From an uncultured Spirochaetota bacterium (GTDB lineage Bacteria > Spirochaetota > Brevinematia > Brevinematales > JAOACQ01), in NCBI GenBank assembly GCA_963796325.1, contig CAWCLF010000001.1:2523242-2587241 (forward strand): DNA of 64,000 bases, in the 5' to 3' direction. The notes beneath the pieces are model-generated. The model was not told the origin of the DNA. It saw only the letters and a program-made list of their open reading frames with translations, and did not search any database. Shown piece after piece: positions 13,170 to 34,730 of the stretch; position 1 is the first letter of the stretch, and every line of letters starts with the position of its first letter. The position numbers were made by a program, and so were the translations under genes.

Positions 13170-13252
13170 GATATTATCCCTTTAAACCATTTATACCAGT
13201 TTTGTACCGCTCCGATTATAGCATCTCATCGGAGGTATCTTACCGGATATAT

Positions 13253-15623: not shown

Positions 15624-15937
15624 ATTCGGCCTTCCTCCGTTATAATTTTCTCATTTGATTCATTGAAAGGGTTATCGCCGGAAAGGACAACCCGACTCAA
15701 TTTATCGGAAGGGGTCTGTCTTACCTTGATTAAAAATATTATGCAATCGGTTATTTTCCTCAGCCGGCCCGATTTCATTGCTTCTTTAAACTATTGGAGC
15801 CCTGATGCCGATCATTTTATAACTATGTTTTTTAAGGCAGTTTAAAGAGAAAAAACAGAATATATATTGACAAAATCGAGTTTTGATCTAAATTATATGC
15901 TGATCGATTGGAATAAAAATATTTACAGGAGGCTTTT

Positions 15938-16477: not shown

Positions 16478-16488
16478 TAAGCTGAGGT

Positions 16489-17778
16489 TTATTTCGCCTT
16501 TAAATCCTTGAAAGGTATGGTATAGACGAGGTCCCTGTACTTCTTCTGGGTATGTATAAAGGAAAAATCCTTGTTTAACAGCTTGTCCTTAAAGGAATTG
16601 ACTGGTATTTTCTCATAAATGAGGCCCTTTATTATTCCTGAACGGGAAATATCGTTAACGAAAACGGCGCCTTCAACAAGGCCGTCCCGGATAAATAATT
16701 TCCTGTAAGTCCTCCTGTCGTAGAACTTTTCAAGTATCTCGCAGGAGTCAGGGTCCGCCGGGTTAGTTTCCCCGAAAGAAATAGTATAAAGATCGTCAAA
16801 GTAAAGCGAATTCATCGGTATGGAACCGTCATATTCGCAATTGAACCCCATCATATTCATCCCGGCAAAATAGCCCATCTTTCTTGCCACGGGCCAGATT
16901 GCGATAACCATATTTTCCTTATTCAGGAAATTATATCCTTTCGCGGCATCTCCTGCGCAGTATATGCCGGGGACATTTGTTTTCATGAACCTGTCGACTT
17001 CGATTCCTCTCGAGGCCTTTACCCCGCAGCTTTCGGCGAGCTTGGTCTCGGGGGTAACTCCGATCGATATGAAAACAAGGTCGGTATCGATCGTGTCGCC
17101 GCTTTTAAGCGTCACAGACCGGACCGTTTTCTCCCCGTTGATGGAAGATACCTCCGTGCCTGTATAAATGCCGACGCCGAACGCCTTAAGCTTTTCCGCC
17201 ATAAGGCAGGAACCGACGGGATCCAGTCCCTTCGAGAGAATGCTGGGTGCAAGTTCTACGATGCTGACTTTGACCCCGAGGTGCGTAAGGGCTTCGGTTG
17301 CCTTGAGGCCGATAAGCCCGCCTCCTATTACGACAGCGCTCTTTGCGCCTTTTTCGATAACCTTTTTCCTCATTTCTTTTGCGTCGTCGAGGTTAAAAAA
17401 GTACATGACCCCTTTCAATTCTTTGCCCGGTATCGGAGGGCTTATCGGCTTGCCGCCTGTATTCAGAAGGAGATTTTCATACCTGATCGAAGTGCCGTCA
17501 TCGAGTTCCACGGTATTCGTTCCTGCATTTATTTTAACGGCTTCCTTTCCAAGAATAGTATCGACGCCCCTGAACCCGGAATATTCCATTCCCCTGTAAG
17601 CTATCCCCTCATCGCCGATCCTGCCCATGGCATAATCGACTATAGCGGGACGTCCGTATGCCGTAAAATTCTCTTTTGTAACCGCGAGGATTTTATTTTT
17701 TTTATCATATTTCCTGATCGCTTCGATCATTCCTATAGCGCCGGCGGAATAGCCTATCGATAGATATTTTGCCTTCAT
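16489..17778 (-). CDS. FAD/NAD(P)-dependent pyridine nucleotide-disulfide-family oxidoreductase (electron-input subunit of the glutamate synthase-like cluster)
   Basis: 429 aa with two Rossmann GxGxxG motifs (IGYSAGAIG; VIGGGLIGLK) and a GD motif (YCAGDAA). Confidence 0.8.
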   Translation of the reverse strand: MKAKYLSIGYSAGAIGMIEAIRKYDKKNKILAVTKENFTAYGRPAIVDYAMGRIGDEGIAYRGMEYSGFRGVDTILGKEAVKINAGTNTVELDDGTSIRYENLLLNTGGKPISPPIPGKELKGVMYFFNLDDAKEMRKKVIEKGAKSAVVIGGGLIGLKATEALTHLGVKVSIVELAPSILSKGLDPVGSCLMAEKLKAFGVGIYTGTEVSSINGEKTVRSVTLKSGDTIDTDLVFISIGVTPETKLAESCGVKASRGIEVDRFMKTNVPGIYCAGDAAKGYNFLNKENMVIAIWPVARKMGYFAGMNMMGFNCEYDGSIPMNSLYFDDLYTISFGETNPADPDSCEILEKFYDRRTYRKLFIRDGLVEGAVFVNDISRSGIIKGLIYEKIPVNSFKDKLLNKDFSFIHTQKKYRDLVYTIPFKDLKAK

Positions 17779-17792
17779 GCCTGAGACCTCCG

Positions 17793-18323
17793 TTAATCTG
17801 TAAGCGACATATCTTCGCCTTCGACAAATGTATGCATCGAACCCTTGAGCGTCATCCTGTCCATAGCCCTTTCATCCCTGTCTTCGAAAACAAGGGCGTC
17901 GTTCGGACAGGCCTGTACGCATGCCGGGCCCTCTCCCCTTCCGGTGCAGAGATCGCATTTATCGGCCTGGCGCATTTTTATATCCGGTTCGACACGTGTC
18001 GTTATCGAACCCTGTGGGCAGGCCATGATGCACATCCAGCATCCTATGCAGCGGTCTGCCTCGACCCTGACAAGGCCGGTATCGTCATCCCGCCACATGG
18101 CGGCGACGGGACATGCTTCCACGCATTCCGCATTTTCACAGATCCTGCAGCTGGCAGAAAAGGAGATCGGACCATCCATCTCGACTTCTATCTTGGAGTT
18201 CACCTTGGGTTTCTCAGAAAACGCATTAAATATATTTTTTGATCTTGAATGCTCTACGATGCAGGCCACTTCGCAAAGGTGGCAGGCAACGCAAAAATCC
18301 TCTACAGGATATACTCTTTTCAC
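17793..18323 (-). CDS. 4Fe-4S dicluster ferredoxin-domain protein
   Basis: 176 aa with multiple Cys clusters (CVACHLCEVAC, CRICENAECVEACP, CIGCWMCIMACP, CDLC...CVQACP). Confidence 0.8.
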   Translation of the reverse strand: MKRVYPVEDFCVACHLCEVACIVEHSRSKNIFNAFSEKPKVNSKIEVEMDGPISFSASCRICENAECVEACPVAAMWRDDDTGLVRVEADRCIGCWMCIMACPQGSITTRVEPDIKMRQADKCDLCTGRGEGPACVQACPNDALVFEDRDERAMDRMTLKGSMHTFVEGEDMSLTD

Positions 18324-18331
18324 GGTTCCTC

Positions 18332-19864
18332 CTACATTCCCAGTCCGGCCTGCTTGAGCCCGAGGACCCTGGTTTCATTTTCAGTCATTCCAACCACCCT
18401 CAGCCTTTCCCTGTTTCCCCTCAGACTTTCGATTGCATTGATGCCCATACTGCCCAGGACTTCCTTCATTTCCATTTCCCAGGCCCTCAACAGGTTTGAA
18501 ATGAGCTCGCCCGCAATGTTCGGGTTCTGCCTTTTAGCCAGGTACGGATCGTTGGTCGTAATGCCCCATGCGCACCGGCCTGTCTGGCACTGCTGGCAAA
18601 GCGTACAGCCGACGGCGATCAGCGCGGCGGTTGAAATATAGACCGCATCCGCCCCCAGCGCTATGGCCTTCAGCACATCGGCAGCGCTTCGCAATCCGCC
18701 TGCGGCGATGAGGCCCACATTTTCACGTATTCCTTCCTGCCTTAACCTGTCGTCTACAACCGCAATCGCCAGTTCTATAGGTATGCCCGTATGATCGCGC
18801 ACTATTGTCGGTGTGGCTCCCGTACCGCCGCGGTACCCGTCCACGACTATGATGTCCGCTCCCGCCCTGGCGATGCCCGATGCTATTGCGGCAATATTGT
18901 GAACGGCGGAAACCTTTACTCCCACCGGTTTCTCATAGCGCGTGGCTTCCTTGAGGGCGTAAATAAGCTGTCTGAGGTCTTCGATCGAATAAATATCATG
19001 ATGGGGAGCAGGTGATATCGCGTCGCTTCCCACCGGGATCATCCTTGTTTTTGCAACATCCTCGACCACTTTTACGCCGGCGAGATGACCTCCGATGCCG
19101 GGCTTGGCCCCCTGCCCTATTTTTATTTCAATGGCCGCTCCGGCCTTCAGATATTCCTCGTGTACCCCGAACCTTCCGGACGCCACCTGCACGATCGTGT
19201 TCGCCCCGTACTTGTAAAGGTCCCTGTGAAGACCGCCTTCGCCTGTGCTCCAGAAAGTGCCATGCTTTTCGGCAGCCGAAGCGAGGGCCTTCTGAACGTT
19301 GAGATTTATAGAACCGTACGACATCGGACCGAAAATGATAGGCACATCGAGCTTTAAAAGCTTCGCGGTCTTTGTCCGCAAGTCTATGGAACCCTTGTTT
19401 TCCCGGATATCGAGGCTCCTTCCCCTGTTCCCTAAATAAGTCCTGAGCTCCATAGGTTCCCTTAAAGGATCTATCGACGGGTTAGTAACCTGGCAGGCGT
19501 CGAACAGGATCCTGTCGAAATACTCTGCCTGGTCGGGCATATCGTTGCCCATGCCGGTAAAACCTATGGCGCCTGTTTCGGCGTTGAGATATATATTCTT
19601 GATGTTGCCCTTTGACCAGTACCCGTTCTCCCTGAATTCCGACTTGTTGCGCTGTATGGAGATCGCGTCCGTCGGGCAGTAAGCTTCGCAGCGGTGGCAT
19701 CCCACGCATTTGGAGTGAATGGAATCTATCTTCTGCCTGTCTTCATCCCAGAAATTGGAGCCGTAGGAGCACTGAGTGACGCAGCCCTGGCATTTTATAC
19801 ATCTGTCAGAATCTCTGACTACTCTGAAATCGTAATAATTTGAGACAATGGGCTGATAAAGCAT
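18332..19864 (-). CDS. Glutamate synthase FMN-binding domain protein (GltB domain 2-like) with an N-terminal 2x[4Fe-4S] module
   Basis: CIKCQGCVTQC...CVGCHRCEAYCP, then the FMN domain (FGPMSYGSIN, IEIKIGQGAKPGIGGHL, ISPAPHHDIYSIEDL, VVDGYRGGTGATP) and CTLCQQCQTGRC. Confidence 0.85.
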   Translation of the reverse strand: MLYQPIVSNYYDFRVVRDSDRCIKCQGCVTQCSYGSNFWDEDRQKIDSIHSKCVGCHRCEAYCPTDAISIQRNKSEFRENGYWSKGNIKNIYLNAETGAIGFTGMGNDMPDQAEYFDRILFDACQVTNPSIDPLREPMELRTYLGNRGRSLDIRENKGSIDLRTKTAKLLKLDVPIIFGPMSYGSINLNVQKALASAAEKHGTFWSTGEGGLHRDLYKYGANTIVQVASGRFGVHEEYLKAGAAIEIKIGQGAKPGIGGHLAGVKVVEDVAKTRMIPVGSDAISPAPHHDIYSIEDLRQLIYALKEATRYEKPVGVKVSAVHNIAAIASGIARAGADIIVVDGYRGGTGATPTIVRDHTGIPIELAIAVVDDRLRQEGIRENVGLIAAGGLRSAADVLKAIALGADAVYISTAALIAVGCTLCQQCQTGRCAWGITTNDPYLAKRQNPNIAGELISNLLRAWEMEMKEVLGSMGINAIESLRGNRERLRVVGMTENETRVLGLKQAGLGM

Positions 19865-19879
19865 TATATCCTCCCGAAT

Positions 19880-20707
19880 TTATCTTTCCCTGATATTCCT
19901 GACGGCGGGATAGCCGTTTGTCTCGTAAGAACCCGGTACGAGCTTTTTCCTGTCCGTAAGCGTATGCCATCCCGGCACGTAATGCATGCCGTAAGGGTTC
20001 CTGCTGACAGGGAGGAGTTTTGTAAAACGGTCCTTGAGGATCTTCGAGCTGTCGAAGCCGAATGCCCTGCAGAATTCGGTTATAAGGGGTTTTAAAAGCG
20101 CGAAATCTTCATCGCCGGCATCGAAGGCCTTCGTCTCCTTTCCAAGCCTTGACCTGTCGATGTCCCCGCGTATATAAATCCGGCCTCCGTGCATGCCCAT
20201 GCCTATATAATCCCCGAGAATGGGCCTGTCGCCGGCATCGAGTCCGAGAATAACAAGAGACCCGCCGGCCATATATTCCCCGAAAAAATCTCCTGCGCAT
20301 CCGCCGATAACCGCTTTCGGTTTAAAATCCATGTATTCCTTCATATGGATGCCTACGCGGTATCCGACATTTCCCTTGATATATACTTCTCCGCCCCTCA
20401 TCCCGTAAAAAAGGACGTCGCCGGCGTCGCCGTGAACGTAGACCTTTCCGGAGTTCATGGTATTGCCTATGCCGTCCTGTGCATTGCCATGGACCGTTAT
20501 TACAGGTCCGTTCATGAAAGCGGCAAGGTCGTTGCCCGCGGTGCCGAAGATATCTATTTTAACATCTGTACCGCGGAGGGCGTTTCCTATGTACCTGTGG
20601 CCGTATGCGTTTTTAATCTCTATATTCTTTTCGCCCTTATCGACGCTTTCATTGATCTTCTCATTGAGAACTTTATAATGAAGCGACGAAGCATCTATGG
20701 ATTTCAT
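19880..20707 (-). CDS. GXGXG-motif protein (glutamate synthase alpha-subunit C-terminal domain-like)
   Basis: 275 aa of repeated beta-helix GxGxG turns (FGTAGNDLAAFMNGPVITVHGNAQDGIGNTMNSGKVYVHGDAGDVLFYGMRGGEVYIKGNVGYRVG). Confidence 0.85.
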   Translation of the reverse strand: MKSIDASSLHYKVLNEKINESVDKGEKNIEIKNAYGHRYIGNALRGTDVKIDIFGTAGNDLAAFMNGPVITVHGNAQDGIGNTMNSGKVYVHGDAGDVLFYGMRGGEVYIKGNVGYRVGIHMKEYMDFKPKAVIGGCAGDFFGEYMAGGSLVILGLDAGDRPILGDYIGMGMHGGRIYIRGDIDRSRLGKETKAFDAGDEDFALLKPLITEFCRAFGFDSSKILKDRFTKLLPVSRNPYGMHYVPGWHTLTDRKKLVPGSYETNGYPAVRNIRER

Positions 20708-20850
20708 CTTTCTCTCCTATGTATGCAGCTTCATAACATTCGAAAAAACGTTAAATATTATATAATGACGCAGGAAATTTCACAAAATTAAAGGCACATC
20801 CGCGATTTAATGCCGGCCGTCATTTTTGATTATTGCAGCCGTTAATTTAT

Positions 20851-20920
20851 GGTCACTTCTAAAAACCGCCCTTTAGAGCGGTGATGTAGTGACCATAGGG
20901 ATTCTGTCCCTATAAGGGGA
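20851..20920 (-). promoter_or_regulatory. Nested hairpin element in the 5' leader region of the glutamate synthase-like operon
   Basis: The outer repeat GGTCACT (20851-57) / AGTGACC (20888-94) encloses ACCGCUC-UAAA-GGGCGGU (complement of 20865-82), which is followed by a U-run on the minus strand. The adjacent ATAGGGA (20895-901) / TCCCTAT (20907-13) hairpin could alternatively pair with AAGGGGA (20914-20). Confidence 0.3.
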
Positions 20921-21247
20921 CGATCATTAGTAACTTAGATTGTAATTGTAAATCATAGCTAGTTTATAGAACAACCCTTATAATAAATAGCAATATTCTT
21001 GAGATATTAGAACTGCCCTTATGCTTATTATGGAGAGATAAATATGCCAAAATACAAACCGGGCGACGGATATTCGGCTGAAATACTGAATTCGCGCCCT
21101 CCTGCGGTCATCGAAACCCGGTCGCAGCCGAGCGGCTGGCCGGGAAAATATCCGGTGAAGAGAAAAATTTCGTTATGAAAATTATAAACAAAGAACTCTT
21201 TAAACACCGCTGATTGCCGGATCTGCATAAATTTAAATAGGGACAGG

Positions 21248-21628
21248 TTGATTATGGACCTTATAGGAATACTTGTATACGGCTACGGTGAAACCGAAGC
21301 CGCCGGCCTGCGGGACGCCCTTTCTATAGCGCTGGGCCGCGATATAGTACTGTTAAGCGCTTCCGGCATGGAAGATGCGACTCTGTACGATGCGATTCAA
21401 AAAGCCAATTCGACCTTTTTCGAGGAAAAGGACACCGTGCTCTTGATTTTCCTCGATTTTACGGACGAGGAAATCCGGAAGACCCTTTCCTCATTTCCCG
21501 GCGGACAGGCAAGGCGGCCCATATTCTGCTCGCCTACAAAGGAAAATATCAAATGGCCGCTCAGGAACCTCATCGGCCACCTCGAGGAGGAAGACCGGTA
21601 CTGGAAAGAGAAAAGGAAAAAGAATTGA
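21248..21628 (+). CDS. DUF3783-like small protein
   Basis: 126-aa ORF starting at TTG 21248 or ATG 21254. The sequence (LIGILVYGY...LLIFLDFTDEEI...) resembles DUF3783 family members as I recall them. This is a weak assignment. Confidence 0.5.
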   Translation: MIMDLIGILVYGYGETEAAGLRDALSIALGRDIVLLSASGMEDATLYDAIQKANSTFFEEKDTVLLIFLDFTDEEIRKTLSSFPGGQARRPIFCSPTKENIKWPLRNLIGHLEEEDRYWKEKRKKN

Positions 21629-21702
21629 CCCGCGGCCCGGCCCTTATGCAATATATTCGAACAATCTCCGTCAATATAGTGAATATCAAATTGGAGGAAT
21701 CG

Positions 21703-22263
21703 ATGGAAGCGAACGATAAAAAGAGGATATGCCGCGTCGGGCATGCGGGCGCGCTGGATAGCGGCCTGCGCAGGCTGCTGCAAAACCCGAAGAGGATCCT
21801 GAAGCCCTATCTGGGCGGCGGGATGGCGGCGCTCGACCTCGGCTGCGGACCCGGATATTTTACTTTTGAAATTGCAAGGCTGGTCGGCCCCGGCGGGAAG
21901 GTAACCGCGGCGGATTTGCAGGACGGGATGCTTGAAATAATGAAAAATAAAATCCATAGCGCGGGCTTTTCAAACATTAAACTGCATAAATGCGGCGAGG
22001 ATAAGACCGGCTTATCTGAAAAATTCGATTTTATACTGGTTTTTTATATGCTGCATGAAGTGCCTGACCAGCCGGCCTTTTTGCAGGAAATAAAATCGCT
22101 CCTAAAAGAGGGAGGCCATGCCCTGGTCGCGGAACCCGATTTCAGGGTATCGAAGGAAGGTTTTCAAAAATCGGTAAGCCTTATGGAAAAAGCGGGACTC
22201 CGGATCGTTAAAAGGCCTTCCATATTTTTAAGCAGGGCGGTTGTGGTAAAAAACGCTGTTTAA
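21703..22263 (+). CDS. Class I SAM-dependent methyltransferase
   Basis: I placed the start at the ATG after GGAGGAAT. Motif I is ALDLGCGPGYF, followed by the downstream post-I and post-II motifs (VTAADL; FDFILVFYMLHEV). Confidence 0.8.
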   Translation: MEANDKKRICRVGHAGALDSGLRRLLQNPKRILKPYLGGGMAALDLGCGPGYFTFEIARLVGPGGKVTAADLQDGMLEIMKNKIHSAGFSNIKLHKCGEDKTGLSEKFDFILVFYMLHEVPDQPAFLQEIKSLLKEGGHALVAEPDFRVSKEGFQKSVSLMEKAGLRIVKRPSIFLSRAVVVKNAV

Positions 22264-22401
22264 CCGATCCGGGCGCACAGTACAGCGTCACGTACAAAGA
22301 GGCTCTTCTAAATTTTCAACTATTTTTGCACCTGCTTTTAGTTAAACATTTCAGTATTTATTGACCAATATTTATTCAATTAACGAAAAGAGGTAAAAAA
22401 T

Positions 22402-22447
22402 ATGTTGCCGTGTACTCCTTTTCTTTTGTTTGACGGTAATTGCGCAG
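22402..22447 (+). pseudogene. 5' remnant of a PhnB/VOC-family gene
   Basis: An ATG preceded by AAGAGG encodes MLPCTPFLLFDGNCA, matching the characteristic N-terminus of PhnB-like VOC proteins (..TPyLmFdGNaeEA..). Similarity ends after about 15 codons and the reading frame runs into the 3' end of the convergent gene. Confidence 0.35.
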
Positions 22448-22466
22448 CGCCCCCATCAAATCAGGT

Positions 22467-23435
22467 TCACTCCACTCCCGTAAAAGGATTCGCATCGGTG
22501 TCGATATTCTCATCCCTCCCGTATTTTAGCCTCGCAGTTTCTCCTCTTATCCTGAACCCCAGGTAGCTTCCCGAAGCGTTCAATACCATTACCGATATCA
22601 TCATCAAAAGAGGCATCAGGACTTCAGGCAGGTAAAATAATTTGTGGAGGCATCCGTTTACAGGCCTGGTCATCCCGGCGAATAATTCCCTGCAGGAGGC
22701 TAAAAAAGCCAGGCAGGCCGGAGCTATATAAAAAGCCGCAAGGTTTTTAACGTCCACCCTTCTTAAAAATGGGCCGCTTTTATCCTTACGTATAAGCCTT
22801 CCTGAAAAAACGGGCATTGCTACGGCCATGGCGGCAATAACAAGCCATGCCGCATACTTTATATAGGGAACGGTTTTGAGCAGGCTGTAATAGAGGTTCC
22901 CGACGGCGACGACCGACATCGCCATAAAAAGGATAAAAGAAATCAGGGCTGCGATTTTCAGCCCCGCATTCGCAAGGACCGGAAACGGCTTTGACGAATA
23001 AAACCACCTCAGGATAAGGTGCAGTTCTATCAGGAACGTAAAGAGGGCCGCAGGAGGACCGGAAATTACCGCTGTCATGATATTCATCCGGGGAAACAGC
23101 GAGAACGCAGCCGCTGTCCCGGCTGCAAGTGAAATTATGATATACTGCCGCAATTTTCCCCTTTCGTTTTTATTCTCTATTTCATCCCACACGGCCTTGA
23201 ACGCAATAAGGCCCGAATAGCGGTAGCTGTCCAGGAGGCTTCTCATGAGCTTCCTGATCCCGGCCTGGAAATTCTGCAAGACCAGGAAGATCCCCGCTGC
23301 AAGGACAGTAAAGAGGATCCTTGCTGCCAGGTCTCCCGGAAGATGCCGGATCTGCCGGATAACCGCCAGCGAATTCCATTCCGAAACCAGCCTGCCCAGG
23401 TAGTAATTCAGTGCATGTTCGAAACCGGCATGCAT
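22467..23435 (-). CDS. Polytopic membrane protein (~7 TM) of unknown function, partner of the T4CP-like ATPase
   Basis: 322 aa with about seven hydrophobic segments. Its ATG overlaps the upstream gene's TAA (TAATG at 23433-23437). Confidence 0.6.
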   Translation of the reverse strand: MHAGFEHALNYYLGRLVSEWNSLAVIRQIRHLPGDLAARILFTVLAAGIFLVLQNFQAGIRKLMRSLLDSYRYSGLIAFKAVWDEIENKNERGKLRQYIIISLAAGTAAAFSLFPRMNIMTAVISGPPAALFTFLIELHLILRWFYSSKPFPVLANAGLKIAALISFILFMAMSVVAVGNLYYSLLKTVPYIKYAAWLVIAAMAVAMPVFSGRLIRKDKSGPFLRRVDVKNLAAFYIAPACLAFLASCRELFAGMTRPVNGCLHKLFYLPEVLMPLLMMISVMVLNASGSYLGFRIRGETARLKYGRDENIDTDANPFTGVE

Positions 23436-24826
23436 TAGCCCTCCCCTTCTCCGCCGAGGGGCGCCAGCCTCTCGTTTATGTCCCTGTAATCGAAACGCGG
23501 GTTTACCTTCGATTTTACGAAAGAATACGGATAGGACCTGAAAATAAAATTGAATTTAGGCATATTCATGATATTGCTCGGGAGGACGACATGCTTGGTG
23601 ACCAGCTGGCGGTTGTAATTCCTGTTGAGCCCGTCCGAATCGGAAAGCCCGCCCCCCGATCCCGCAACGCCCGAATCCTGGACTGTTTCCACAAGGTATT
23701 CCGCTTCGGAAATGAGATCGGAAAACTCCCCGGCGTCATGCGGGTCTGCGACTGCAAACAGGACCTTTGTCCCGCAGGCGTTTACGATCGTGTTTTTAAG
23801 CGGGCCGTAGATATTTTCCACCTGCGACAGGTCCTGTGCGGCGAGCCAGACGGATCCTCCCTTGGACCTCGACAGTGTAAGAAGCTCCACGAGGGAATTA
23901 AGCCGCTGGAGGGTGGGAAATTCATCGAGCATGAAAAAGATCCTTTTTGTCAGCGAATCCGGAAGCGAAAGCACGTTCTTGGCGATTGTATCGATCAGGA
24001 GCGACAGCAGGGGCCGGAGCATATCCCTGATATCGGCAAATCCTGTCACATACAGGATGCCGGGTTCGCCGTCAGCCGTCCAGCCCGATACGGTAAAATC
24101 GCCGTCCGGGTAATTCATGCAGAGAAGGGATTCCGTGAATTGGGACAGGACCGCAAGGACGCCCGCCGACTGGCTGGAACCGGCGCCTGAAATGTAATTT
24201 GCCGCTATCGGATTGACCGAAAAAACCTTTTCATAAATTTCCCTCTCGGAGCCGCACAGGAGCCCGATCAGTCCGGCATTGTTCTGCTCCCTCTCGGAGC
24301 AGCCGCATAGCAGGAATTCAATAAGGGCCTTCAATACGGCCCTGGCCCCGTCCCTGAAGAACCTCTCGTTGCCGGCATCGGTGCCCGGCGGTATCAGCGA
24401 ATGGCAGATGCTGTCGGCCGCAGCCGATCTTTTTACACCTGCCGGTGCATGCGCCTTGATTTCTCCTATGATGTTCCATTTCACCGAACGGGAATCGAGA
24501 GGATTGAAAATAATGTCCTTCCCCCGGGAATAGAATTTCGAAAGAAAATCGCCCTTAAAATCGTAAACGACGGCCTTTCCCGAATTTGAAATTATCTGTT
24601 CGACGATCCCGTAAATCAGGACCGATTTTCCTACGCCGGGCTTTCCGATTATAAAAATATGCTCCGGCTCCGACTGGACCGGCAGAAGGCACCCGCCGAT
24701 CATGACGGGTTTGCCCCTTGCAGGGGAACTCTTCATATCCTCCCTGACACGGCGGTTATACTCGTTTTCATCAATAAACCGCGAACCTCTGACCCAATGT
24801 TCCCTGTAAAGGGTCCCGTCCTTCAT
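23435..24826 (-). CDS. TraD/TraG/VirD4-type coupling-protein ATPase domain (FtsK/HerA superfamily) lacking an N-terminal membrane anchor
   Basis: 463 aa. Walker A is HIFIIGKPGVGKS. Also present are the T4CP-typical DIIFNPLDSRSVKW, Walker B RIFFMLDEFPTLQRL, and SRSKGGSVWLAAQDLSQVENIYG. There is no hydrophobic segment before the P-loop. Confidence 0.8.
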   Translation of the reverse strand: MKDGTLYREHWVRGSRFIDENEYNRRVREDMKSSPARGKPVMIGGCLLPVQSEPEHIFIIGKPGVGKSVLIYGIVEQIISNSGKAVVYDFKGDFLSKFYSRGKDIIFNPLDSRSVKWNIIGEIKAHAPAGVKRSAAADSICHSLIPPGTDAGNERFFRDGARAVLKALIEFLLCGCSEREQNNAGLIGLLCGSEREIYEKVFSVNPIAANYISGAGSSQSAGVLAVLSQFTESLLCMNYPDGDFTVSGWTADGEPGILYVTGFADIRDMLRPLLSLLIDTIAKNVLSLPDSLTKRIFFMLDEFPTLQRLNSLVELLTLSRSKGGSVWLAAQDLSQVENIYGPLKNTIVNACGTKVLFAVADPHDAGEFSDLISEAEYLVETVQDSGVAGSGGGLSDSDGLNRNYNRQLVTKHVVLPSNIMNMPKFNFIFRSYPYSFVKSKVNPRFDYRDINERLAPLGGEGEG

Positions 24827-24854
24827 GAAATTCTCCGGCCCGTAAATGAATTAA

Positions 24855-24883
24855 ATGATACAGGGGGAACGAAAATATGTCAA
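24855..24883 (-). promoter_or_regulatory. Sigma70-type promoter of the T4CP-like two-gene operon
   Basis: On the minus strand: TTGACA (complement of 24878-83), 17-nt spacer, TATCAT (complement of 24855-60). GGAG lies 7 nt before the ATG at 24826. Confidence 0.45.
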
Positions 24884-24954
24884 TTAATATTTGGTATGCA
24901 ATAAATTGGCAACCCCGGTTCCAGTATTTCCGGACTAACTTAAAAAATATTGTC

Positions 24955-27795
24955 TCACCGATGTTTTGCCGAAACGAATTCTTCGTATGACAGCGGCTTA
25001 TCGATAAGCTGCCATTTCTTATTAAAATTCGTGACGCGGTTGGAAATCGACATCGGCAAATGCGACAGCACGTAATCCATCGGGGATGGAAAAAATAAAC
25101 CACCGCTTGTGTTTACAATGTACCAGAGCCCGTTTATCCGGACGGCGTTCCATCTGTTGTTCAGCCTGCGTGTTTTCGAGTCATTGGAGTTTTTCAGGAT
25201 TTTTTCATTGCCCCTGATAAAAATGCAGCTTAAACCTGTTTCTCTCGCGATGGTATTATACAAAAACGAGAAATCGCCGCTAACGCCTCTTCTTGTCTGC
25301 AGGGTTACCTCAGGGGAGCCCGGGTGTTTGCATCTTAAAACTTCTATCTGGTCCGTAATGACGGAATTTGTATCGATTTTTAAAGGATTCCAGCCGCTTC
25401 TTGACGCTTCGATATAATCATAGCTGATATTGTTTGTAATCCATGTAAATATGACCCTCGCCTTTTCAAGGTCGTTTGTTGCGCCTTTCCTGAAGTATGA
25501 CGCCAGCGATCCTACCGATGCCGCTGCTTTCGACGGCGCCCCGGCCGCATAGGCGTCTATGGATTTGAACTGTTCCTCGCCGAACGCTTCCAGGCCCGGC
25601 CCCGGATCGGCAGCTCCGGATATTTTAAGAAGATCCGCCGTATCATATTTCCCGTTGTCGGTGGCAAGGCTTAACGCGTAATTGCCGTATAAATCCACGC
25701 AATTGATGTCGGCGCCTTTTTCGATAAACAGCCTGACATAATCCTTCAGACCCTTTTCAGAAGCATACATCAGGACGGATTTCCCGTTATTATCAGCGGC
25801 ATTGATATCGGATTGCGCATTTACAAGCAACTTTATTTCATTCGTCCGGTTATCCCTGATCGCCTCCATTAAAGCTGTGCATCCGTATTTATTCCTTGCG
25901 TCGATGTCTCCATGGTTTTTGACGTACCATTCTAATATATTCGAGTCGGTGCGCCAATTGCTTGATATTATGTTGTTTGATTTCATGAATTTTTCGTACG
26001 GCAGCGGCTCATCGAGAAGCTGCCATTTCCGGGAATAAACCAGATTATTGGAATAATTATCTATAGTCATTATCGGGAAATGAGTAAAAACAAAATTTAC
26101 AGGCGGGATAAAAAATAATTTCCAGGTCGGGTCTACAAAGTACCAGAGCCCGTTAATCCGGACGGTGTTCCATTCATGACTGTCCTTTGAACCCTTAGTA
26201 TCGGCTAAACCGCTGAGGCTGACGCTCATCAAGCCCATTTCTCTCGCGAGGGTATTATATAACATTGAATAATCGTAACATATGCCTCTTCTCGTCAAAA
26301 GGGTTACATTCGGGGAGCCTATGTTCTTTAATCTTAAAATTTCAGTTTCATCGGTAATGCCGGCATTAATATTTAAATTTTTCGGATTCCAGCCGCTCCT
26401 TGCCGCTTCGACATAATCATAGCTGATATTGTTTGTTATCCAAGTGAATATGACCCTCGACTTTTCGAGGTCGTTCGTAGCACCTTTTTCCAGGTAAGAA
26501 GCCAGGGTTTTGAACGAGGATGCGACATTGGAAGGTGTGTTTACCGCGTAGGAATCCACCGACATGAACAGTTCCGGCTTATAGGTCCCGAAGCCCGGCC
26601 TGGGATCGGCTGCTCCGGACTTTTTAAGGATATCGGCGATGTCGGAACGATGATATTTCAACGCTTCAGATAAAGCGCTGAAACCGAAATCGTCAAACCA
26701 ATTGACATCCGCACCCAGATCCACGAGCATCCTGACAGAATCCTTGTACCCATTCCTGCTTGCCCAAAATATAGGCTCACCTTTATTAACGTCAGCCCCG
26801 GCTTTTTTCAGCATATCGGCGCACTCAATAATATTTGTCTCATTCCAGTATCTGGAATTAGTGCCGGTATAATTTTCAAAAGTACGGGTATAAAAATAAC
26901 CTCTGTCTCCGTCGCCGATATAGTCTGAATGTAATTTATTTTGAAATAAGCATGATAAGGCCGTCTCACCGAAAAGATCGACGGCATTTACATCCGCTCC
27001 TGCCGATATAAGAATTTTTATGGCTTCCTTTTCACCGAATAGCGCGGCGCCGATCAGCGCTGTTTCGCCGCGTTTGTTCGTTAAATTGACATTAGCTCCG
27101 GAATCGATAAGAAATTGTATCGAATTTGTATAACTGACGCCATGTTCGATATACTTTTCGATTATATGCATTAATGTTGTCATTCCATTGCTGTCGCTTT
27201 CATTGACGTCGGCGCCGGCGCTTAAAAACAGCTTCATTGCGCCGGCGTTGTTGTTGACCCCGCTCCACACTAACGGCGAAGCCCCCTCATTGTCTATTGC
27301 GTTTACCTTTGCTCCCGCCTTGATTAAAAGTTTTGCAATATCTGCATTGGAATACCATGTGGCAAAATGTAGAGGTGTTCTTCCATCTTTATTCTTATAG
27401 TTGACATCGGCTCCCGAATTGACAAGAAGCTCGATGCAGTCTATGGAAACCCATCCTTCCAAGGCTCTTTCTAAAACCGTATCTCTCGACCAGTCGGGGT
27501 CCCCGGTAACCGCATTGACATCCGCCCCCGCTTTTATAAGAAGCCTGGCCATATCCAGTGACTCCAGCTTGCCTTTCTCATTTCTGTAAACGGAATCGTA
27601 TGAAAGCGCCCATGATAACAGTGTGGCTTTATAAGCTTTGTCCTTTATATTGACATTACCGCCCTTATTTATATAATTACTGAAATAACTGATATTTCCT
27701 TTCCTGGCCGCCTCAAAAATATCCATGGAATGTAACCTCAGGGCGGGTAAAACGATCGATAAGATAACAAAATATTTTAATAACGGCTTCATCAT
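24955..27795 (-). CDS. Secreted ankyrin-repeat protein with two transglutaminase-like cysteine-protease modules
   Basis: 946 aa with signal peptide MMKPLLKYFVILSIVLPALRLHS. Many ANK repeats (G..TPLH/ALM....G....VKLLI.AGADVN). The two modules contain VIFTWITNNISYDY...TRRGICYDYS...HEWN...VDPT and ...TRRGVSGDFS...NRWN...VNTS. Confidence 0.8.
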   Translation of the reverse strand: MMKPLLKYFVILSIVLPALRLHSMDIFEAARKGNISYFSNYINKGGNVNIKDKAYKATLLSWALSYDSVYRNEKGKLESLDMARLLIKAGADVNAVTGDPDWSRDTVLERALEGWVSIDCIELLVNSGADVNYKNKDGRTPLHFATWYSNADIAKLLIKAGAKVNAIDNEGASPLVWSGVNNNAGAMKLFLSAGADVNESDSNGMTTLMHIIEKYIEHGVSYTNSIQFLIDSGANVNLTNKRGETALIGAALFGEKEAIKILISAGADVNAVDLFGETALSCLFQNKLHSDYIGDGDRGYFYTRTFENYTGTNSRYWNETNIIECADMLKKAGADVNKGEPIFWASRNGYKDSVRMLVDLGADVNWFDDFGFSALSEALKYHRSDIADILKKSGAADPRPGFGTYKPELFMSVDSYAVNTPSNVASSFKTLASYLEKGATNDLEKSRVIFTWITNNISYDYVEAARSGWNPKNLNINAGITDETEILRLKNIGSPNVTLLTRRGICYDYSMLYNTLAREMGLMSVSLSGLADTKGSKDSHEWNTVRINGLWYFVDPTWKLFFIPPVNFVFTHFPIMTIDNYSNNLVYSRKWQLLDEPLPYEKFMKSNNIISSNWRTDSNILEWYVKNHGDIDARNKYGCTALMEAIRDNRTNEIKLLVNAQSDINAADNNGKSVLMYASEKGLKDYVRLFIEKGADINCVDLYGNYALSLATDNGKYDTADLLKISGAADPGPGLEAFGEEQFKSIDAYAAGAPSKAAASVGSLASYFRKGATNDLEKARVIFTWITNNISYDYIEASRSGWNPLKIDTNSVITDQIEVLRCKHPGSPEVTLQTRRGVSGDFSFLYNTIARETGLSCIFIRGNEKILKNSNDSKTRRLNNRWNAVRINGLWYIVNTSGGLFFPSPMDYVLSHLPMSISNRVTNFNKKWQLIDKPLSYEEFVSAKHR
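24958..26622. repeat. Intragenic tandem duplication with 999-bp period (two ANK-linker-transglutaminase modules)
   Basis: Module 2 (24958-25623) and module 1 (25981-26622) are alignable at both protein and DNA level. For example, the 24-mer ATAATCATAGCTGATATTGTTTGT occurs at 25414-25437 and 26413-26436, exactly 999 nt apart. Confidence 0.8.
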
Positions 27796-27821
27796 AAAGC
27801 GCCTCCGGGTCGGAGCCTTGA

Positions 27822-29225
27822 TTATTTCCTGACGAGCAGCTTTATATCGAAAAATTCGCTGTTGACCGTGAAATTCGTAACCGGCTTTTCCGTGTAATGG
27901 CTCTTAAGATAAGCCTTGTATTCCCTGTGCCCGCCGCTCGAATTGTCACTATTCCTGTAATAATCGTCCTCGATATTGTAAAGCTCCATGCTGTTAGTAT
28001 CGAACCGATGCGTGTATGTCGAAGCATAAAAATCCCGGCCGACGAATGCGAACCATTCGTCCGGTCCTCCCAGCACGGGTATCTTTCCCGGCGGGACCAG
28101 GGCTTCGAGCATTGCTGTTTTCCTGTTGAAATCGTAAGTCCTGTTACGGTACATGACATATATGTAATTGAGCGATACGATGAGGAAGAGGGCCGCCGGG
28201 GCAAGCCTCCGGAATTTCGTTCCCTCCAGGCATGCAAAGGCCAGGAAAAGAAAAGAAACATAAAAATAGAGGGTATAGTGGTAGTTGTCGCGCGGATTTA
28301 TAAAATTGACAATGACGGACAGTACCAGGAGATATAATACGAACCTCTGTTCCTTAAACCCTTTTGTCGCAAGATACATAGCCAGGCAAAGGGCAAGAAG
28401 GACGAACACGAATACATGAAGCCTGGCCTGGAAATGGAAGAAGTAATCGGCCAGCACCGAAAAAGGCTGCGAGGCGGACCCGGTTTTGAAATTCGAATAT
28501 ATCTCTTTGAGATAGGGGTAATGCAGCAGGAGGTAATAAGCCGCGCCCAGAATAACGCCGGATATGAAAAGCGCCGCGGGCAACAGATATTTTTTAACGG
28601 AAACGAATGATCCTTTCCGCGCGGACGCAGCCATGAAAGCGGCTATGAAGACAAGCGAAAAAAGGCCCATCGGGTGGTTTTCGAAGGCGACCATGACGAA
28701 AAGTCCTGCCAGGAAAGGCTTGTTATAAACAAAAAAGAGGAAAGACAGAGACATAAGGAAGAACGTGAGGCTTTCCGGGCGGGCCAGGTTCGCCTCCCTG
28801 AAGAAGGGATCGCACCAGAGCACCAGGAGCGCGAATAAAACAGCGCTTTTGACCGTGAAATTCATTTTTCTCGTAATAAAATACCAGGAAGCCGAAGAAG
28901 CGGCGATGAAGAAGGTCGAAATAAGATGGGCGTTGCCCTTAGTCCAGCCGATCGCCTGCAGTACCGGACCGTAAATATAAGCCTGGGTCATGCCGAAAAT
29001 GTGGGGGTTCGCAAGCCCTCCGCCGAAAGTCGTTTCAGGAGGTATATGCCTGACAAGCATGTTGTAGATGAACGAGAGGGCCCATGCGTCGTCCACGTCC
29101 TCCCTTGCAAACCTGAGGTGAAGCAGTATATATGCGAGTATTACAGCGACGCTTATCAAAACGATAAGGACGATATCGGGATCGATCCTCCGCGCCGGGA
29201 TAAGCCTTTGCGAATTATCATTCAT
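27822..29225 (-). CDS. Polytopic membrane protein, GT-C-like glycosyltransferase candidate
   Basis: 467 aa with at least 10 hydrophobic segments and an acidic first-loop motif (FAREDVDDAW), as in GT-C enzymes. The C-terminal domain is soluble. Confidence 0.45.
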   Translation of the reverse strand: MNDNSQRLIPARRIDPDIVLIVLISVAVILAYILLHLRFAREDVDDAWALSFIYNMLVRHIPPETTFGGGLANPHIFGMTQAYIYGPVLQAIGWTKGNAHLISTFFIAASSASWYFITRKMNFTVKSAVLFALLVLWCDPFFREANLARPESLTFFLMSLSFLFFVYNKPFLAGLFVMVAFENHPMGLFSLVFIAAFMAASARKGSFVSVKKYLLPAALFISGVILGAAYYLLLHYPYLKEIYSNFKTGSASQPFSVLADYFFHFQARLHVFVFVLLALCLAMYLATKGFKEQRFVLYLLVLSVIVNFINPRDNYHYTLYFYVSFLFLAFACLEGTKFRRLAPAALFLIVSLNYIYVMYRNRTYDFNRKTAMLEALVPPGKIPVLGGPDEWFAFVGRDFYASTYTHRFDTNSMELYNIEDDYYRNSDNSSGGHREYKAYLKSHYTEKPVTNFTVNSEFFDIKLLVRK

Positions 29226-29413
29226 CGTATGCCTCGAAAAATATTTTATGGCAGCGTTTATATTGTAACCGGAAATTTCAGTTTGGACAAAAAAATCCGC
29301 TGTACCGATACCCGGACCGGCCTATTTCCGTAATGTCTTTTTGACAATTATTTTATGGATAACTTATAATATAATTAAATCACCCGGGGCGGGGGCATTT
29401 AATAATTTCGGAG

Positions 29414-29812
29414 GTGATAAATATGGGAAGAAAGGAAGAACTGCTATTCGATGCTGTTAAAGGCCATCTGGAAGAAGTAAAAAATATGCTATCCAAGGGC
29501 GTCGACGTCAATGCAAGAGACCGGGACGGCTGCACCCCTCTCATAATCGCATCGCAATACAAAGGGAACAAGGATATAGTGAATCTTCTCATTTCAAAAG
29601 GGGCCGACATCAATGCAAGAGATAATAAGGGAAATACCCCTCTGATTAATGCTTCACATTGCGGAATTAACGATATAGCAGAGCTTCTCATCTCCGGGGG
29701 CGCCGATGTCAATGCCAAAAATAATGACGGCATCTCTCCGCTGTCCTGGGCATTGGGTTACGGATTCAAAGATATCGCGGTAATGCTCATATCGAAAGGC
29801 GCGAAGAAATAA
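29414..29812 (+). CDS. Small cytoplasmic ankyrin-repeat protein
   Basis: 132 aa with four ANK repeats (DGCTPLIIASQYKGNKDIVNLLISKGADINARDNKGNTPLINASHCG...). RBS GGAGGTG. Confidence 0.8.
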   Translation: MINMGRKEELLFDAVKGHLEEVKNMLSKGVDVNARDRDGCTPLIIASQYKGNKDIVNLLISKGADINARDNKGNTPLINASHCGINDIAELLISGGADVNAKNNDGISPLSWALGYGFKDIAVMLISKGAKK

Positions 29813-29915
29813 GGCCCCGCATCCGTATTATCCGGATTGTCCGGAAAATTCATAGCGGAGTAATCTATTAAAGCCGTCAAATGGCTCGGATACGGCGAAT
29901 AATTAGGAGTATTAT

Positions 29916-30834
29916 ATGAAGGTATTCCTGACGGGCGGGACCGGTTATCTTGGTTCCCACATAGCAATGCTTCTCCTGAAGGAAGGGCATGAAGTCACTA
30001 TCCTGGCCCGCAGCCCGGGACTTATTCCGGCTTTTAACAATATGCCCGGACTTAAAATCGTAAAGGGAGCAATGGACAGTTTCGATATCATAAGGGAAAA
30101 TATTAAAGGGCATGACGCCTGTATTCATACGGCAAGGACTTTTTCATCGTTTTTTGCGGATGAACCTGCGTCGAATATACTGAATGTCGATGTTTATTCC
30201 TCGCTAAGGCTGTTCGAAGCGGCCGCCGAGAACGGGGTTAAAGACGCCGTTTTCGCCTCTTCGAGCATGGCCCTGGGGGACTACAGGCATAATATGAACG
30301 AGGACATGAATCTCCTTCCGTTCAATTACTACGGGTCCGCCAAGGCTTCCATCGAGTGTTTCATGCTCGGCCATGGCCCTTAAACCCGGCATGCGCTGCA
30401 ATATAATACGTCCCGGGCAGATCATGGGCAGAAAAGCCGTTGAAGGCGGAAAAGACTATTCCTATAAGTTTATAAGCGAATTCGTCGCAAAGGCTTTTAA
30501 GGGAGAAACGATCTCCGTCGTAAAACATGACGGAACGCAGCCGGTCACCGGGGAAGATCTTGCAAAGGTTTTTTTATCGGTGCTTAATTCGGGACGGAAC
30601 CGGAGAATCTATTTCGCCCTGGGAAAGCATTTCATCGACAAAGAGGCTGTAGCCCGAAAAATCATTGAAATGACCGGATCCTCATCCGGGATCGAAGTAA
30701 CGCCGAACCCGATGGAGGACGAACCGAAACTTTTCAATGTTGATAAAATGGAAAAAGAACTCGGGCTTTCGTTCGATACATGGCCCGAGATAACCGCCGA
30801 AATTGAAGAAGAGATAGGCAGGTACCCGGCATAA
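29916..30834 (+). pseudogene. NAD-dependent epimerase/dehydratase (extended SDR) interrupted by a frameshift
   Basis: MKVFLTGGTGYLGSHIA (Rossmann fold) and YGSAKASIE (YxxxK) lie in frame 1, which stops at 30381. The fold continues in the +1 frame as LKPGMRCNIIRPGQIMG. The shift is at about 30372-30378. Confidence 0.7.
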
Positions 30835-30840
30835 CGCGGC

Positions 30841-32322
30841 CTATCGCAGCCTGTATGCGCCCATCAGGTCGTCGCCGTAGATCCTGTCGGCCGGGCCTGT
30901 ATTTGTCAGGTTCTCTTTCTTGTCGATGGCATACTTGAGGCTGGAAGAGTCATTTTCATTCCATTTCCGGTGCAGGATCTCCCTGGCCGTAACTTCGTAA
31001 AAATACTTTTCATATTCGGTCCTGACCGCGAACGGCCTGCCTTCCGCATTGTCCAGGATCGCATTTATATACCCGTACTGCCTTGAAATGCTGAAAGGCC
31101 TGATTACGTCGGCAAAGTAATACAGCGACAGGACGGATCCCGCAGTTATGAAAACGGCGCTTAATAAGAGCATAATATTCCTGCGCATATTCTTTTCGAT
31201 GCGTTCGAGGAAAACCGCCGGCGGGAAAAATGCGAAGGCGAATACGGGAAAATAATAATGGATCGGATTGGCCGGGATCCCGAATACCATGAATGCGAAT
31301 ACAAGCCCGCCCAGGACAAGAAGGAAAAACACCGAGGCGCCGTACCCGGCTCCGGAGAGTCCCGGTTTGCGGAAGAACGCCGAAATGCAGTATATAAAGG
31401 CTGCCGCAGGCAGGACAAGGCTGGCCGCATAAACGGGAAGGGCCGGCCAGAGGGCGTACCACGGGATTTTTGACAGGAATTTGATGCCTTCGGACATATA
31501 CCCGCTCATCATAAAATCGAGGCTGGGGAACAGCAGCATGTATGAAAGCACGGGGAAGGAAAAACCGGCAGCCCCGTTATGCATTGAAAGAATGGCCGCA
31601 GTATTGCCGAAACGGCTGCCGAGTTCGCTTAATAGATAAGGCAGGTAAAGAGCTGCCGCCCCCGAAAGGCCGTACCAGAAAAACTTTTTATTCTTTCCCT
31701 TGTAAAAAAATACGATATATACGGCCAGAATGAGCGGGAGATAAAAAAATGCCGTGAAATGCACCTGCGATATCAGGGCGCTTAATGGAAGAAGAAGAAA
31801 GAGAGAGAGGGGGCTGTCTTTTCCAGAGAATATGTTGAGAAGCATCGATGCGAGAACGAGGGACAGCATCGCGGCGTAATAAGGATTCCACATGCCGGAT
31901 TCCATCTGCATCATCCTTGGGCTGAAAAGGAGAAGCGACGCGGTAACGGACATGGCGGCGGCGCCGAAATGCTTCCTTACCGTCCAAATGAAAAAAACCG
32001 ATGCGCACAGCATGAGCGCCGCTGAATAAATTTGAAAATATAAGGGGCTGTCGAATAATAAGGCGGGGATTGCAAGAAGTTCGTAATATCCCCCTCCGGG
32101 GATCCTTGCGCCGGTCCCGGCCAGCCCCGGGCCGACGGCCGGGACACTAAACGACGAGAATATCCTCTTTGCCTCGAGGAAATGGTCGACATCGTCCAGC
32201 ATAAGATAGTTGTTAAACCATGTGACCGACCTCGTCGCTATGAAAGCCGCTATAAAAAATAAAAGAAGGACAAACTCCTTTTTGAGATAAAAATTTTGAG
32301 TATGGGGGGCTTTATCGCTCAT
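30841..32322 (-). CDS. Polytopic membrane protein, GT-C-like glycosyltransferase candidate
   Basis: 493 aa, many TM segments, first-loop acidic motif LMLDDVDHF, soluble C-terminal domain. 4-nt overlap with the upstream gene. Confidence 0.45.
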   Translation of the reverse strand: MSDKAPHTQNFYLKKEFVLLLFFIAAFIATRSVTWFNNYLMLDDVDHFLEAKRIFSSFSVPAVGPGLAGTGARIPGGGYYELLAIPALLFDSPLYFQIYSAALMLCASVFFIWTVRKHFGAAAMSVTASLLLFSPRMMQMESGMWNPYYAAMLSLVLASMLLNIFSGKDSPLSLFLLLPLSALISQVHFTAFFYLPLILAVYIVFFYKGKNKKFFWYGLSGAAALYLPYLLSELGSRFGNTAAILSMHNGAAGFSFPVLSYMLLFPSLDFMMSGYMSEGIKFLSKIPWYALWPALPVYAASLVLPAAAFIYCISAFFRKPGLSGAGYGASVFFLLVLGGLVFAFMVFGIPANPIHYYFPVFAFAFFPPAVFLERIEKNMRRNIMLLLSAVFITAGSVLSLYYFADVIRPFSISRQYGYINAILDNAEGRPFAVRTEYEKYFYEVTAREILHRKWNENDSSSLKYAIDKKENLTNTGPADRIYGDDLMGAYRLR

Positions 32323-34690: not shown

Positions 34691-34730
34691 ATTAACCCGT
34701 CAAAAAATGTTTTAAGGGCTGTTTAAACCC

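Follow-up and report, generated by a model that had tools for sequence, protein, structure and literature searches.

The 64,000-nucleotide stretch of DNA analysed here, hereafter the window, comes from an uncultured Spirochaetota bacterium of the order Brevinematales (contig CAWCLF010000001.1). Its minus strand carries a pair of adjoining genes, one for an ATPase and one for a membrane protein (Table 1), which an initial annotation, made from the letters of the window, took for an orphan and self-contained module, perhaps a novel translocase or a defence-like system. As argued below, the pair is probably the coupling protein, in two parts, of a type IV secretion system (T4SS) encoded elsewhere on the same chromosome.

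The ATPase is akin to VirD4, TrwB and TraD, the type IV coupling proteins (T4CPs). The two marks of this family are present: a nucleotide-binding domain (NBD) with Walker A (GKPGVGKS, residues 61-68) and Walker B (FFMLDEFP, residues 297-304) motifs, and the all-alpha domain. Two further motifs, DIIFNPLDSRSVKW at residues 104-117 and GGSVWLAAQDLSQ at residues 323-335, are read in the translation. Pfam gives TrwB_AAD_bind (PF10412) with an E-value of 4.5e-71 (240.2 bits for a gathering cut-off of 20.5), TraG-D_C (PF12696) with 5.7e-22 (78.4 bits, cut-off 22) and T4SS-DNA_transf (PF02534) with 3.3e-22. The best NCBIfam model is that of TraD_Ftype (TIGR02759), whose 191.7 bits lie below the equivalog cut-off of 521.35. 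The sole match in a sequence search of the PDB is TrwB deltaN70 (1E9R/1GL6, E 8e-36), and because residue 10 of the ATPase pairs with residue 15 of that crystallised chain, the protein starts where the soluble domain of TrwB starts. A hydropathy scan found no hydrophobic segment in it, at the N-terminus or elsewhere, and the N-terminal transmembrane domain (TMD) of VirD4-type proteins, with its two or more transmembrane (TM) helices, is absent. Nor can the open reading frame (ORF) be extended upstream, since it begins at the first start codon after the upstream stop. In PLSDB, 4805 of the best 5000 records matching the ATPase are plasmids predicted to be conjugative. Judged by its sequence, the protein is unambiguously a T4CP, and the initial annotation had rightly seen both its cytoplasmic hallmarks and its lack of hydrophobic N-terminal helices.

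The two genes are closely joined. On the coding strand the TAA of the ATPase and the ATG of its partner overlap as TAATG, as had been noticed earlier: the plus-strand letters at 23431-23440 (...gcATGCATTAgcc) give this stop-start overlap. A Shine-Dalgarno sequence of the GGAGG type lies within the 3' end of the ATPase gene, before the partner ATG (plus strand around 23435: ATGCATTAG). Upstream of the ATPase, the intergenic gap of 128 bp (24827-24954) does contain the promoter that had been claimed for it, TTGACA-17-TATCAT, a call by consensus match (11 of 12 positions) in a region where 3 such sites occur and 3.4 would be expected in shuffled sequence. At the other end of the pair, a small plus-strand ORF (22402-22566, 54 aa) with a ribosome-binding site of its own (AAGAGGTAAAAAATATG) overlaps the 3' end of the partner gene from the opposite strand. 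This is the place where a truncated gene remnant had been proposed; there is indeed an ORF abutting the pair, while no Pfam or other profile match identifies it as part of a known gene. Its first twenty or so residues (MLPCTPFLLFDGNCAAP) may resemble the N-termini of the PhnB/VOC family, and it may be what is left of an old rearrangement junction. Neither direct or inverted repeats flanking the pair, of the kind that an insertion leaves as scars, nor a GC anomaly at the pair were found.

The membrane partner belongs to no recognisable family, as first stated. It has no match in Pfam, NCBIfam, PADLOC or PDB searches (a PDB profile search gave chance-level matches, with E at least 0.3), and no homologue among the plasmids of PLSDB. 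A word-indexed protein search returned six homologues, and eight clusters, all of this same narrow family, came from profile searching across 1.84 billion representatives in full. The best-conserved stretches of the family are the loop at residues 59-97 (SYRYSGLxAFKAVWDEIENKNERGKLRQY; mean column identity 0.78, with nine lysines or arginines) and the loop at residues 147-156 (SKPFPV; 0.81), and the C-terminal PFxGxE is invariant. By the positive-inside rule both loops would face the cytoplasm, that is, the side of the ATPase. One hypothesis takes such a protein for the N-terminal TMD of a TraD-like ancestor, detached by gene fission. This was rejected: when the partner alignment was compared by hhalign with the N-terminal parts of as many as 60 T4CP relatives that bear a TMD, the probability came to 0.4%, and the partner gene lies downstream, not upstream, of the ATPase gene. 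An analogue of VirB6 is unlikely too, as the mating-pair formation (MPF) cluster described below has its own multi-TM TraG-like protein of 825 aa, and as the partner accompanies the T4CP rather than the MPF genes.

A search of 5.8 billion proteins places the close relatives of the ATPase in a small clade, 47-72% identical and 434-574 aa long, each member of which starts at the soluble domain. The next tier consists of TraD-like proteins, 35-39% identical and 545-655 aa long, with one to three N-terminal TM helices. Walker A starts at residues 51-77 in the anchor-less clade, versus 159-206 in the TMD-bearing relatives, the closest of which have 100-140 additional N-terminal residues. Genome contigs scanned with the ATPase alone gave no relative; scanned with its alignment, they gave two contigs from Brevinematales metagenome-assembled genomes (MAGs) and two irrelevant weak matches. 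Two relatives of the pair come from MAGs labelled uncultured Brevinematales, and the T4CP of a third locus, L022, is also annotated as Brevinematales.

In every locus of the partner family where the upstream DNA can be read, an anchor-less T4CP precedes the partner (Table 1; relationships among loci were checked by pairwise BLAST). Whether the two genes co-occur had been left as a check by the initial annotation, and they are kept as a unit in every locus that holds the partner family. This extends to the most distant pair, that of L022 (Brevinematales MAG GCA_013177895.1), where the T4CP is 38% identical and the 397-aa multi-TM protein matches the partner with an E-value of 5e-9, keeping the motifs FKxxWDxI...Y and SYLG. 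The pair thus combines what is expected of a two-partner T4CP: a coupling protein devoid of TMD, an adjoining gene for a membrane protein, and a pairing kept across homologues. Some T4CP genes are broken. In L005 an insertion of about 5.5 kb (11024-16561), carrying a PLD-family gene, DUF3644 and an IS21-like Mu-transposase/IstB pair, interrupts the orthologous T4CP after residue 337; residues 373-441 resume beyond it and the partner gene is intact. In L007 the T4CP is 5'-truncated within Walker A.

Table 1. The gene pair of the window, its putative promoter, and the related pairs
Feature	Position	Strand	Product	Basis or arrangement
Type IV coupling protein ATPase (VirD4/TrwB/TraD family)	23435..24826	-	463 aa, without N-terminal TMD	Pfam, NCBIfam, PDB, hydropathy
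Polytopic membrane partner of the ATPase	22467..23435	-	322 aa, about 7 TM	Hydropathy; unannotated family
Sigma-70-like promoter TTGACA-17-TATCAT	24883-24855	-		Scan; sequence read directly
L001			T4CP 469 aa, partner 323 aa	46-bp gap
L005			T4CP 340 aa (cut short), partner 314 aa	5.5-kb insertion splits T4CP gene
L007			T4CP 353 aa, partner 306 aa	4-bp overlap
L009			T4CP 574 aa, partner 356 aa	11-bp overlap
L012-L015			T4CP 445 aa, partner 308 aa	2-bp gap
L022			T4CP 470 aa, partner 397 aa	15-bp gap
L024			T4CP 468 aa, partner 330 aa	Two small genes between, 1.3 kb apart

The window itself has no further conjugative gene, in agreement with the initial annotation: neither a relaxase nor VirB4 nor any other T4SS gene was found there by tblastn with all ORFs of four T4SS or relaxase loci (L001, L009, L020 and L021) and by Pfam analysis of the flanking ORFs. 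The tblastn matches were the pair itself, ankyrin repeats, and one unrelated flanking ORF of L021 (371 aa, Peptidase_M24) at 1742-2455. A VirB4 homologue, P0129 (844 aa, TraC_F_IV, 42% identical to the VirB4 of L001), is recorded on a contig of 2,744,431 bp, and the two proteins of the pair, P0001 and P0121, on a contig of equal length. Its locus, L020, comes from the Logan run ERR10755942, which also gave L008, a locus that equals positions 20993-34827 of the window but for a single 1-bp indel. The gene order of L020 is TraK(weak)-131-TraB/TrbI-118(lipoprotein)-TraC-389-275-825-158-DUF5710-225-680-C11 peptidase, with profile matches to TraB (1.7e-12), TrbI and TraC_F_IV. It is collinear with the cluster of L001, the proteins of 118, 844, 389, 275, 825 and 158 aa corresponding to those of 120, 841, 410, 285, 879 and 162 aa. 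Among the MPF proteins, NCBIfam and Pfam name TraB, TrbI, TraC and, weakly, TraK, and TraE in relatives (the related clusters L025-L027 hold it in addition); the remaining subunits are without a name. In a sister genome both parts stand on one contig of 1.8 Mb (contig_18643): the T4CP lies near 270.7 kb, and VirB4 some 82 kb away, near 352.6-355.1 kb. At the level of the genome, then, the pair is probably not an orphan: its co-occurrence with a VirB4-containing T4SS is indirect here, and direct in contig_18643 and in L001.

The surroundings of the MPF clusters (L020, L021 and L025-L027) are themselves conserved. Upstream are genes for two regulators, one a hybrid histidine kinase and the other a sigma-54-dependent response regulator; downstream are those for a C11 (clostripain-like) peptidase and for a secreted protein some 700 aa long. 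This hints at a regulated expression, possibly with a linked secreted protease.

Relatives of the pair point to conjugation more directly. The pair of L001 directly adjoins an F-like T4SS cluster, which is divergent and reads 280-162-879-285-408-VirB4/TraC_F_IV(827). In L009 it is followed by ArdC, a TrwC relaxase of 943 aa and a topoisomerase (Topo III). In L022 a TrwC relaxase of 938 aa lies 2.5 kb upstream of the pair, and in L024 a ParA gene shares its contig. This is not what one would expect of the orphan, self-contained module of the initial annotation, which had named an occurrence of the pair solely within complete conjugative elements as the finding that would speak against it; such is, to a large extent, the setting of the relatives. 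Since, in an all-against-all comparison of the loci, the pair alone is common to the conjugative-type and the chromosomal-type ones, it would serve a family of conjugative systems in Brevinematales as their coupling-protein module. As a separate observation, L022 also has a type I-E CRISPR-Cas operon (14937-21413; Cas3, Cse1, Cse2, Cas7, Cas5 and further genes), 3.5 kb downstream of the T4CP, partner and TrwC genes.

We estimate at roughly three in four the probability that the F-like T4SS of this organism has the pair as its two-partner coupling protein. The ATPase would be a cytoplasmic, hexameric motor of the FtsK/HerA superfamily and the receptor of the substrate. The 7-TM protein would be its inner-membrane anchor and adaptor, recruiting and orienting the hexamer, and would presumably tie it to the inner-membrane complex of the T4SS, thereby replacing the fused N-terminal TMD that canonical T4CPs need in order to oligomerise, to make contact with VirB10 and to be functional (PMC7434980). 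That the partner recruits and orients the ATPase is suggested by the translational coupling of the genes, by their strict co-occurrence and by the fact that it is precisely this clade that has lost the TMD. The membrane anchor supplied by a co-translated polytopic protein, already an idea of the initial annotation, thus gains from a conserved pairing and from a whole clade without TMD. The machine so served would be a divergent F-like T4SS encoded elsewhere on the same Brevinematales chromosome, with putative pilin-like, TraL-like, TraE, TraK-like, TraB/VirB10, TraV-like (lipoprotein), TraC/VirB4 and TraG-like (825 aa) parts. Because close relatives of the pair adjoin TrwC (MOB_F) relaxases, relaxase-bound DNA, and hence conjugation, is the likeliest substrate. 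What the data show is the anatomy of the genes, the family of the ATPase and its lack of a TMD, the conserved pairing, the linkage of the relatives to T4SS and relaxase genes, a matching T4SS cluster from the same run on a contig of equal length, and purifying selection. From these we infer that the two proteins touch, that the partner anchors the ATPase, that the conserved loops are cytoplasmic, and what the substrate is.

Several observations weigh against this proposal. The co-residence of pair and T4SS on one chromosome is deduced from contigs of equal length and from a shared run, not from coordinates. Neither a relaxase, nor an oriT, nor an integrase was located in the 64-kb window and one locus of 14.8 kb (from a 34-kb contig). 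Homology between the partner and the N-terminal TMDs of related T4CPs is undetectable (the hhalign probability of 0.4% given above), so that the case for an anchor is one of position and co-occurrence. The AlphaFold2 (AF2) model of the partner, built from an alignment of six sequences, is too poor for use, with a mean predicted local distance difference test (pLDDT) score of 43.7 and a predicted TM-score (pTM) of 0.31. Finally, the broken genes of L005 and L007 suggest that the function of the T4CP is dispensable, or decaying, in some lineages.

The pair seems to have been in place for a long time. Both genes are under purifying selection, with dN/dS at most about 0.09 for the ATPase (against L012) and at most about 0.2 for the partner; dN among the chromosomal-type genomes is 0.15-0.25 and 0.28-0.58 respectively, for a dS that is saturated (at least 1.7) or not computable. 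When L005 is compared with L012, the identity is 76% for the T4CP, 56% for the partner, and 62-79% for the flanking miaA, cvpA, Mur ligase and SurA_N-like genes. Neighbour genes for proteins of 559, 493 and 467 aa are common to the window, L005, L007 and L012 despite different gene orders. A divergence that matches that of the flanks, shared neighbours, an unremarkable GC content and the lack of repeats argue together for long residence and vertical descent.

This history invites a different view of the machine, in which, in one family of Brevinematales, the F-like T4SS and its split T4CP are chromosomally fixed and vertically inherited, with scattered genes as in the vir homologues of Rickettsiales, and have perhaps been repurposed, the 7-TM partner standing for a new class of adaptor. 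We regard this as a tentative and rather unlikely idea; the repurposing may have been toward effector delivery or the transfer of chromosomal DNA. If it were true, a 7-TM partner would have replaced a fused TMD in a diderm bacterium. In a related reading the T4SS would be domesticated and no longer conjugative, the pair acting as its receptor for substrates, be it in the delivery of effectors or toxins, in the release of DNA or in the transfer of chromosomal DNA. We find this reading unlikely, even though the pair diverges in step with the core genes that flank it in L005 and L012, is partly syntenic with the 559/493/467-aa genes in four genomes, and shows neither GC anomaly nor flanking repeats. 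The MPF cluster of the sister genome lying some 82 kb from the pair fits it as well, and so do the MPF neighbours (histidine kinase, sigma-54 activator, C11 peptidase) that are kept in three other contigs, and the ankyrin-repeat genes that adjoin the T4CP in the window and in L001. Yet the T4CP is broken in two sister genomes, and the signal-peptide-like N-terminus of the 946-aa ankyrin-transglutaminase next to it is atypical for effectors recruited by a T4CP. More distant members of the pair stand beside TrwC, ArdC and ParA, and it is for this reason that DNA transfer appears as the ancestral, and probably the current, role of the pair.

Could the pair be a mere relic, left without function after an integrative conjugative element had decayed? 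No further gene of conjugation stands in the window, a possible gene remnant (22402-22566) abuts the pair, and the orthologous T4CP is broken by an insertion in L005 and 5'-truncated in L007. Against this, neither ORF is damaged, and the catalytic motifs are all in place, together with a Shine-Dalgarno sequence, a near-consensus promoter and translational coupling; dN/dS, though dS is saturated, stays well under 1; and an intact, matching MPF cluster exists in the same sample or contig. This makes a relic very improbable.

We give next to no credence to a stand-alone module of defence or membrane translocation (abortive infection, DNA exclusion), despite the isolation of the pair from other T4SS genes within the window and two PADLOC matches, mad8 for the ATPase (1.3e-18) and mad2 for the neighbouring methyltransferase (2.1e-21), because the loci examined are never defence islands and repeatedly are T4SS or relaxase settings, because mad8 reaches 65.6 bits where TrwB_AAD_bind reaches 240 for the same ATPase, and because mad2 recognises the generic SAM-binding domain, and this only, of a 205-aa methyltransferase encoded by the other strand. 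The anti-phage system MADS is an operon of eight genes, of which mad2-4 and mad6-8 are required (bioRxiv 10.1101/2023.03.30.534895). Such an operon is not found here: besides these two weak and generic matches, mad1 and mad3-7 are absent, nine other neighbouring proteins scanned gave no mad match, and the partner has no PADLOC match. A defence ATPase of the HerA/FtsK type was rejected likewise, the PADLOC matches to HerA, Nhi and AbiO (E at least 3e-4) being confined to residues of about 53-105 around Walker A, far from a full-length match. The suggestion of a novel translocase or defence-like system thus gave way before these weak, generic matches and the T4SS and relaxase settings of the relatives.

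The genes that flank the pair in the window are ordinary ones: glutamate-synthase-like, methyltransferase, DUF3783, ankyrin-transglutaminase, GT-C-like membrane protein, UmuC, LuxR and OmpA. Directly upstream of the T4CP, the 946-aa protein (24955-27795, minus strand), with its signal-peptide-like N-terminus, consists of two tandem modules of ankyrin repeats and a transglutaminase core, which arose when some 1 kb was duplicated within the gene (the copies, 24976-25531 and 25987-26530, are 74-88% identical). A second, small ankyrin gene (29414-29812, plus strand) lies 4.6 kb further upstream, and L001 has an ankyrin gene (8456-8950) about 1 kb upstream of its T4CP. Ankyrin proteins are effectors of T4SSs in other bacteria; in the case of the 946-aa protein, an export that depends on the T4CP was counted against because of its signal peptide. 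The shared proteins of 559, 493 and 467 aa, at 30841-33998 and 27822-29225 (both minus strand), have no above-threshold Pfam match, the 467-aa one giving a sub-threshold TgpA_N (E 2.7e-4, 20.5 bits for a cut-off of 30). Since their genes are found among those for glycosyltransferases, GtrA and epimerases, they probably belong to surface-glycan synthesis, not to the T4SS. In one of the genes of this region (29916-30834, plus strand) the window has an additional base at position 30367, CATGCTCGGCC where the short-read Logan contig has CATGCCGGCC, which reduces a 305-aa NAD-dependent epimerase to an ORF of 155 aa. Either the frameshift is genuine or the base is an indel of the assembly.

Further away, a split glutamate-synthase-like cluster of three genes (17793-20707, minus strand), assigned by eye from the translations, encodes proteins of 176 aa (4Fe-4S), 510 aa (FMN/GltB-core-like) and 275 aa (GXGXG-domain-like). 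On the other side, at 34877-36848 (minus strand), a UmuC-like polymerase of the Y family (IMS, IMS_C and DUF4113 domains) is overlapped by an upstream ORF of 230 aa, which may be UmuD-like. Genes of the UmuC/UmuD type are sometimes carried by mobile elements; nothing else around this one is suggestive of such an element.

What, then, does the pair add to what is known? It represents no novel type of defence system or translocase. Most T4CPs have an N-terminal TMD that is essential for docking onto the T4SS. The manner in which a T4CP docks onto the channel of its T4SS is still undefined, and auxiliary subunits of coupling complexes have been termed D4Aux (PMC12857230). A whole membrane module that exists as a separate, co-translated 7-TM protein would offer a clean genetic and structural handle on this anchor or adaptor function. 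A full-text search of a limited body of literature found nothing on T4SS and conjugation genes in Brevinematales, nor on Brevinema and type IV secretion; the present loci document such genes, and a small family of hypothetical membrane proteins gains a name and a testable role.

Five groups of T4CPs are distinguished: VirD4-type, TraG-TraJ (R27), TMD-less, FtsK-like and archaeal (PMC7434980; PMC7431656). With TrwB of R388, TraD of F and VirD4, the ATPase shares the NBD and all-alpha domain (PF10412), TraG-D_C and an association with a VirB4-containing T4SS. It differs from them in having neither a fused TMD nor a long C-terminal TraM-binding extension, in a gene that lies far from those of the MPF, and, with regard to TraD, in a score of 191.7 bits that stays below the TraD_Ftype equivalog cut-off. 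Dot/Icm, where DotL works with DotM and DotN, likewise has a coupling complex of several proteins with an inner-membrane auxiliary subunit (D4Aux; PMC12857230). By contrast, DotL has its own TM anchor, its partners are unrelated to the one described here, and Dot/Icm moves protein effectors. The TraG-TraJ couple of R27 (IncH) resembles the pair in that its T4CP needs, in order to function, the polytopic membrane protein of an adjoining gene (Gunton et al., 2007, cited in PMC7434980). There, however, TraG keeps an N-terminal TMD of its own, which the ATPase lacks, and TraJ has about 200 aa and up to five TM segments, compared with the 322 aa and about seven TM of the partner.

By its architecture, the pair fits the TMD-less T4CPs, which may form a complex with a separate membrane protein, as TraJ does with TraI in pIP501 (PMC7434980; PMC7431656). 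These two proteins of Enterococcus (formerly Orf10 and Orf9) are, like our pair, an ATPase without TMD and a membrane protein proposed to complete a complex of the VirD4 type (PMC7434980; PMC7431656). The differences are several. Partners of the pIP501 type are described in a review as small membrane proteins, whereas the present family has about seven TM segments and 300-400 aa; its gene is here downstream of that of the ATPase and translationally coupled to it; and where the pIP501 type has an MPF_FATA system in a Gram-positive bacterium, our pair occurs in a diderm lineage of spirochaetes whose T4SS is F-like. Profile, Pfam, NCBIfam and PLSDB searches, which include no head-to-head comparison, found no similarity of the partner to TraI of pIP501 or to TraJ of R27. 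The TMD-less T4CP with its separate membrane partner is thus an established class, which is extended here from Gram-positive plasmids to a spirochaete lineage. What is new is the partner, a family of eight clusters with about seven TM segments and conserved loops, predicted to be cytoplasmic, in a diderm lineage that has an F-like T4SS.

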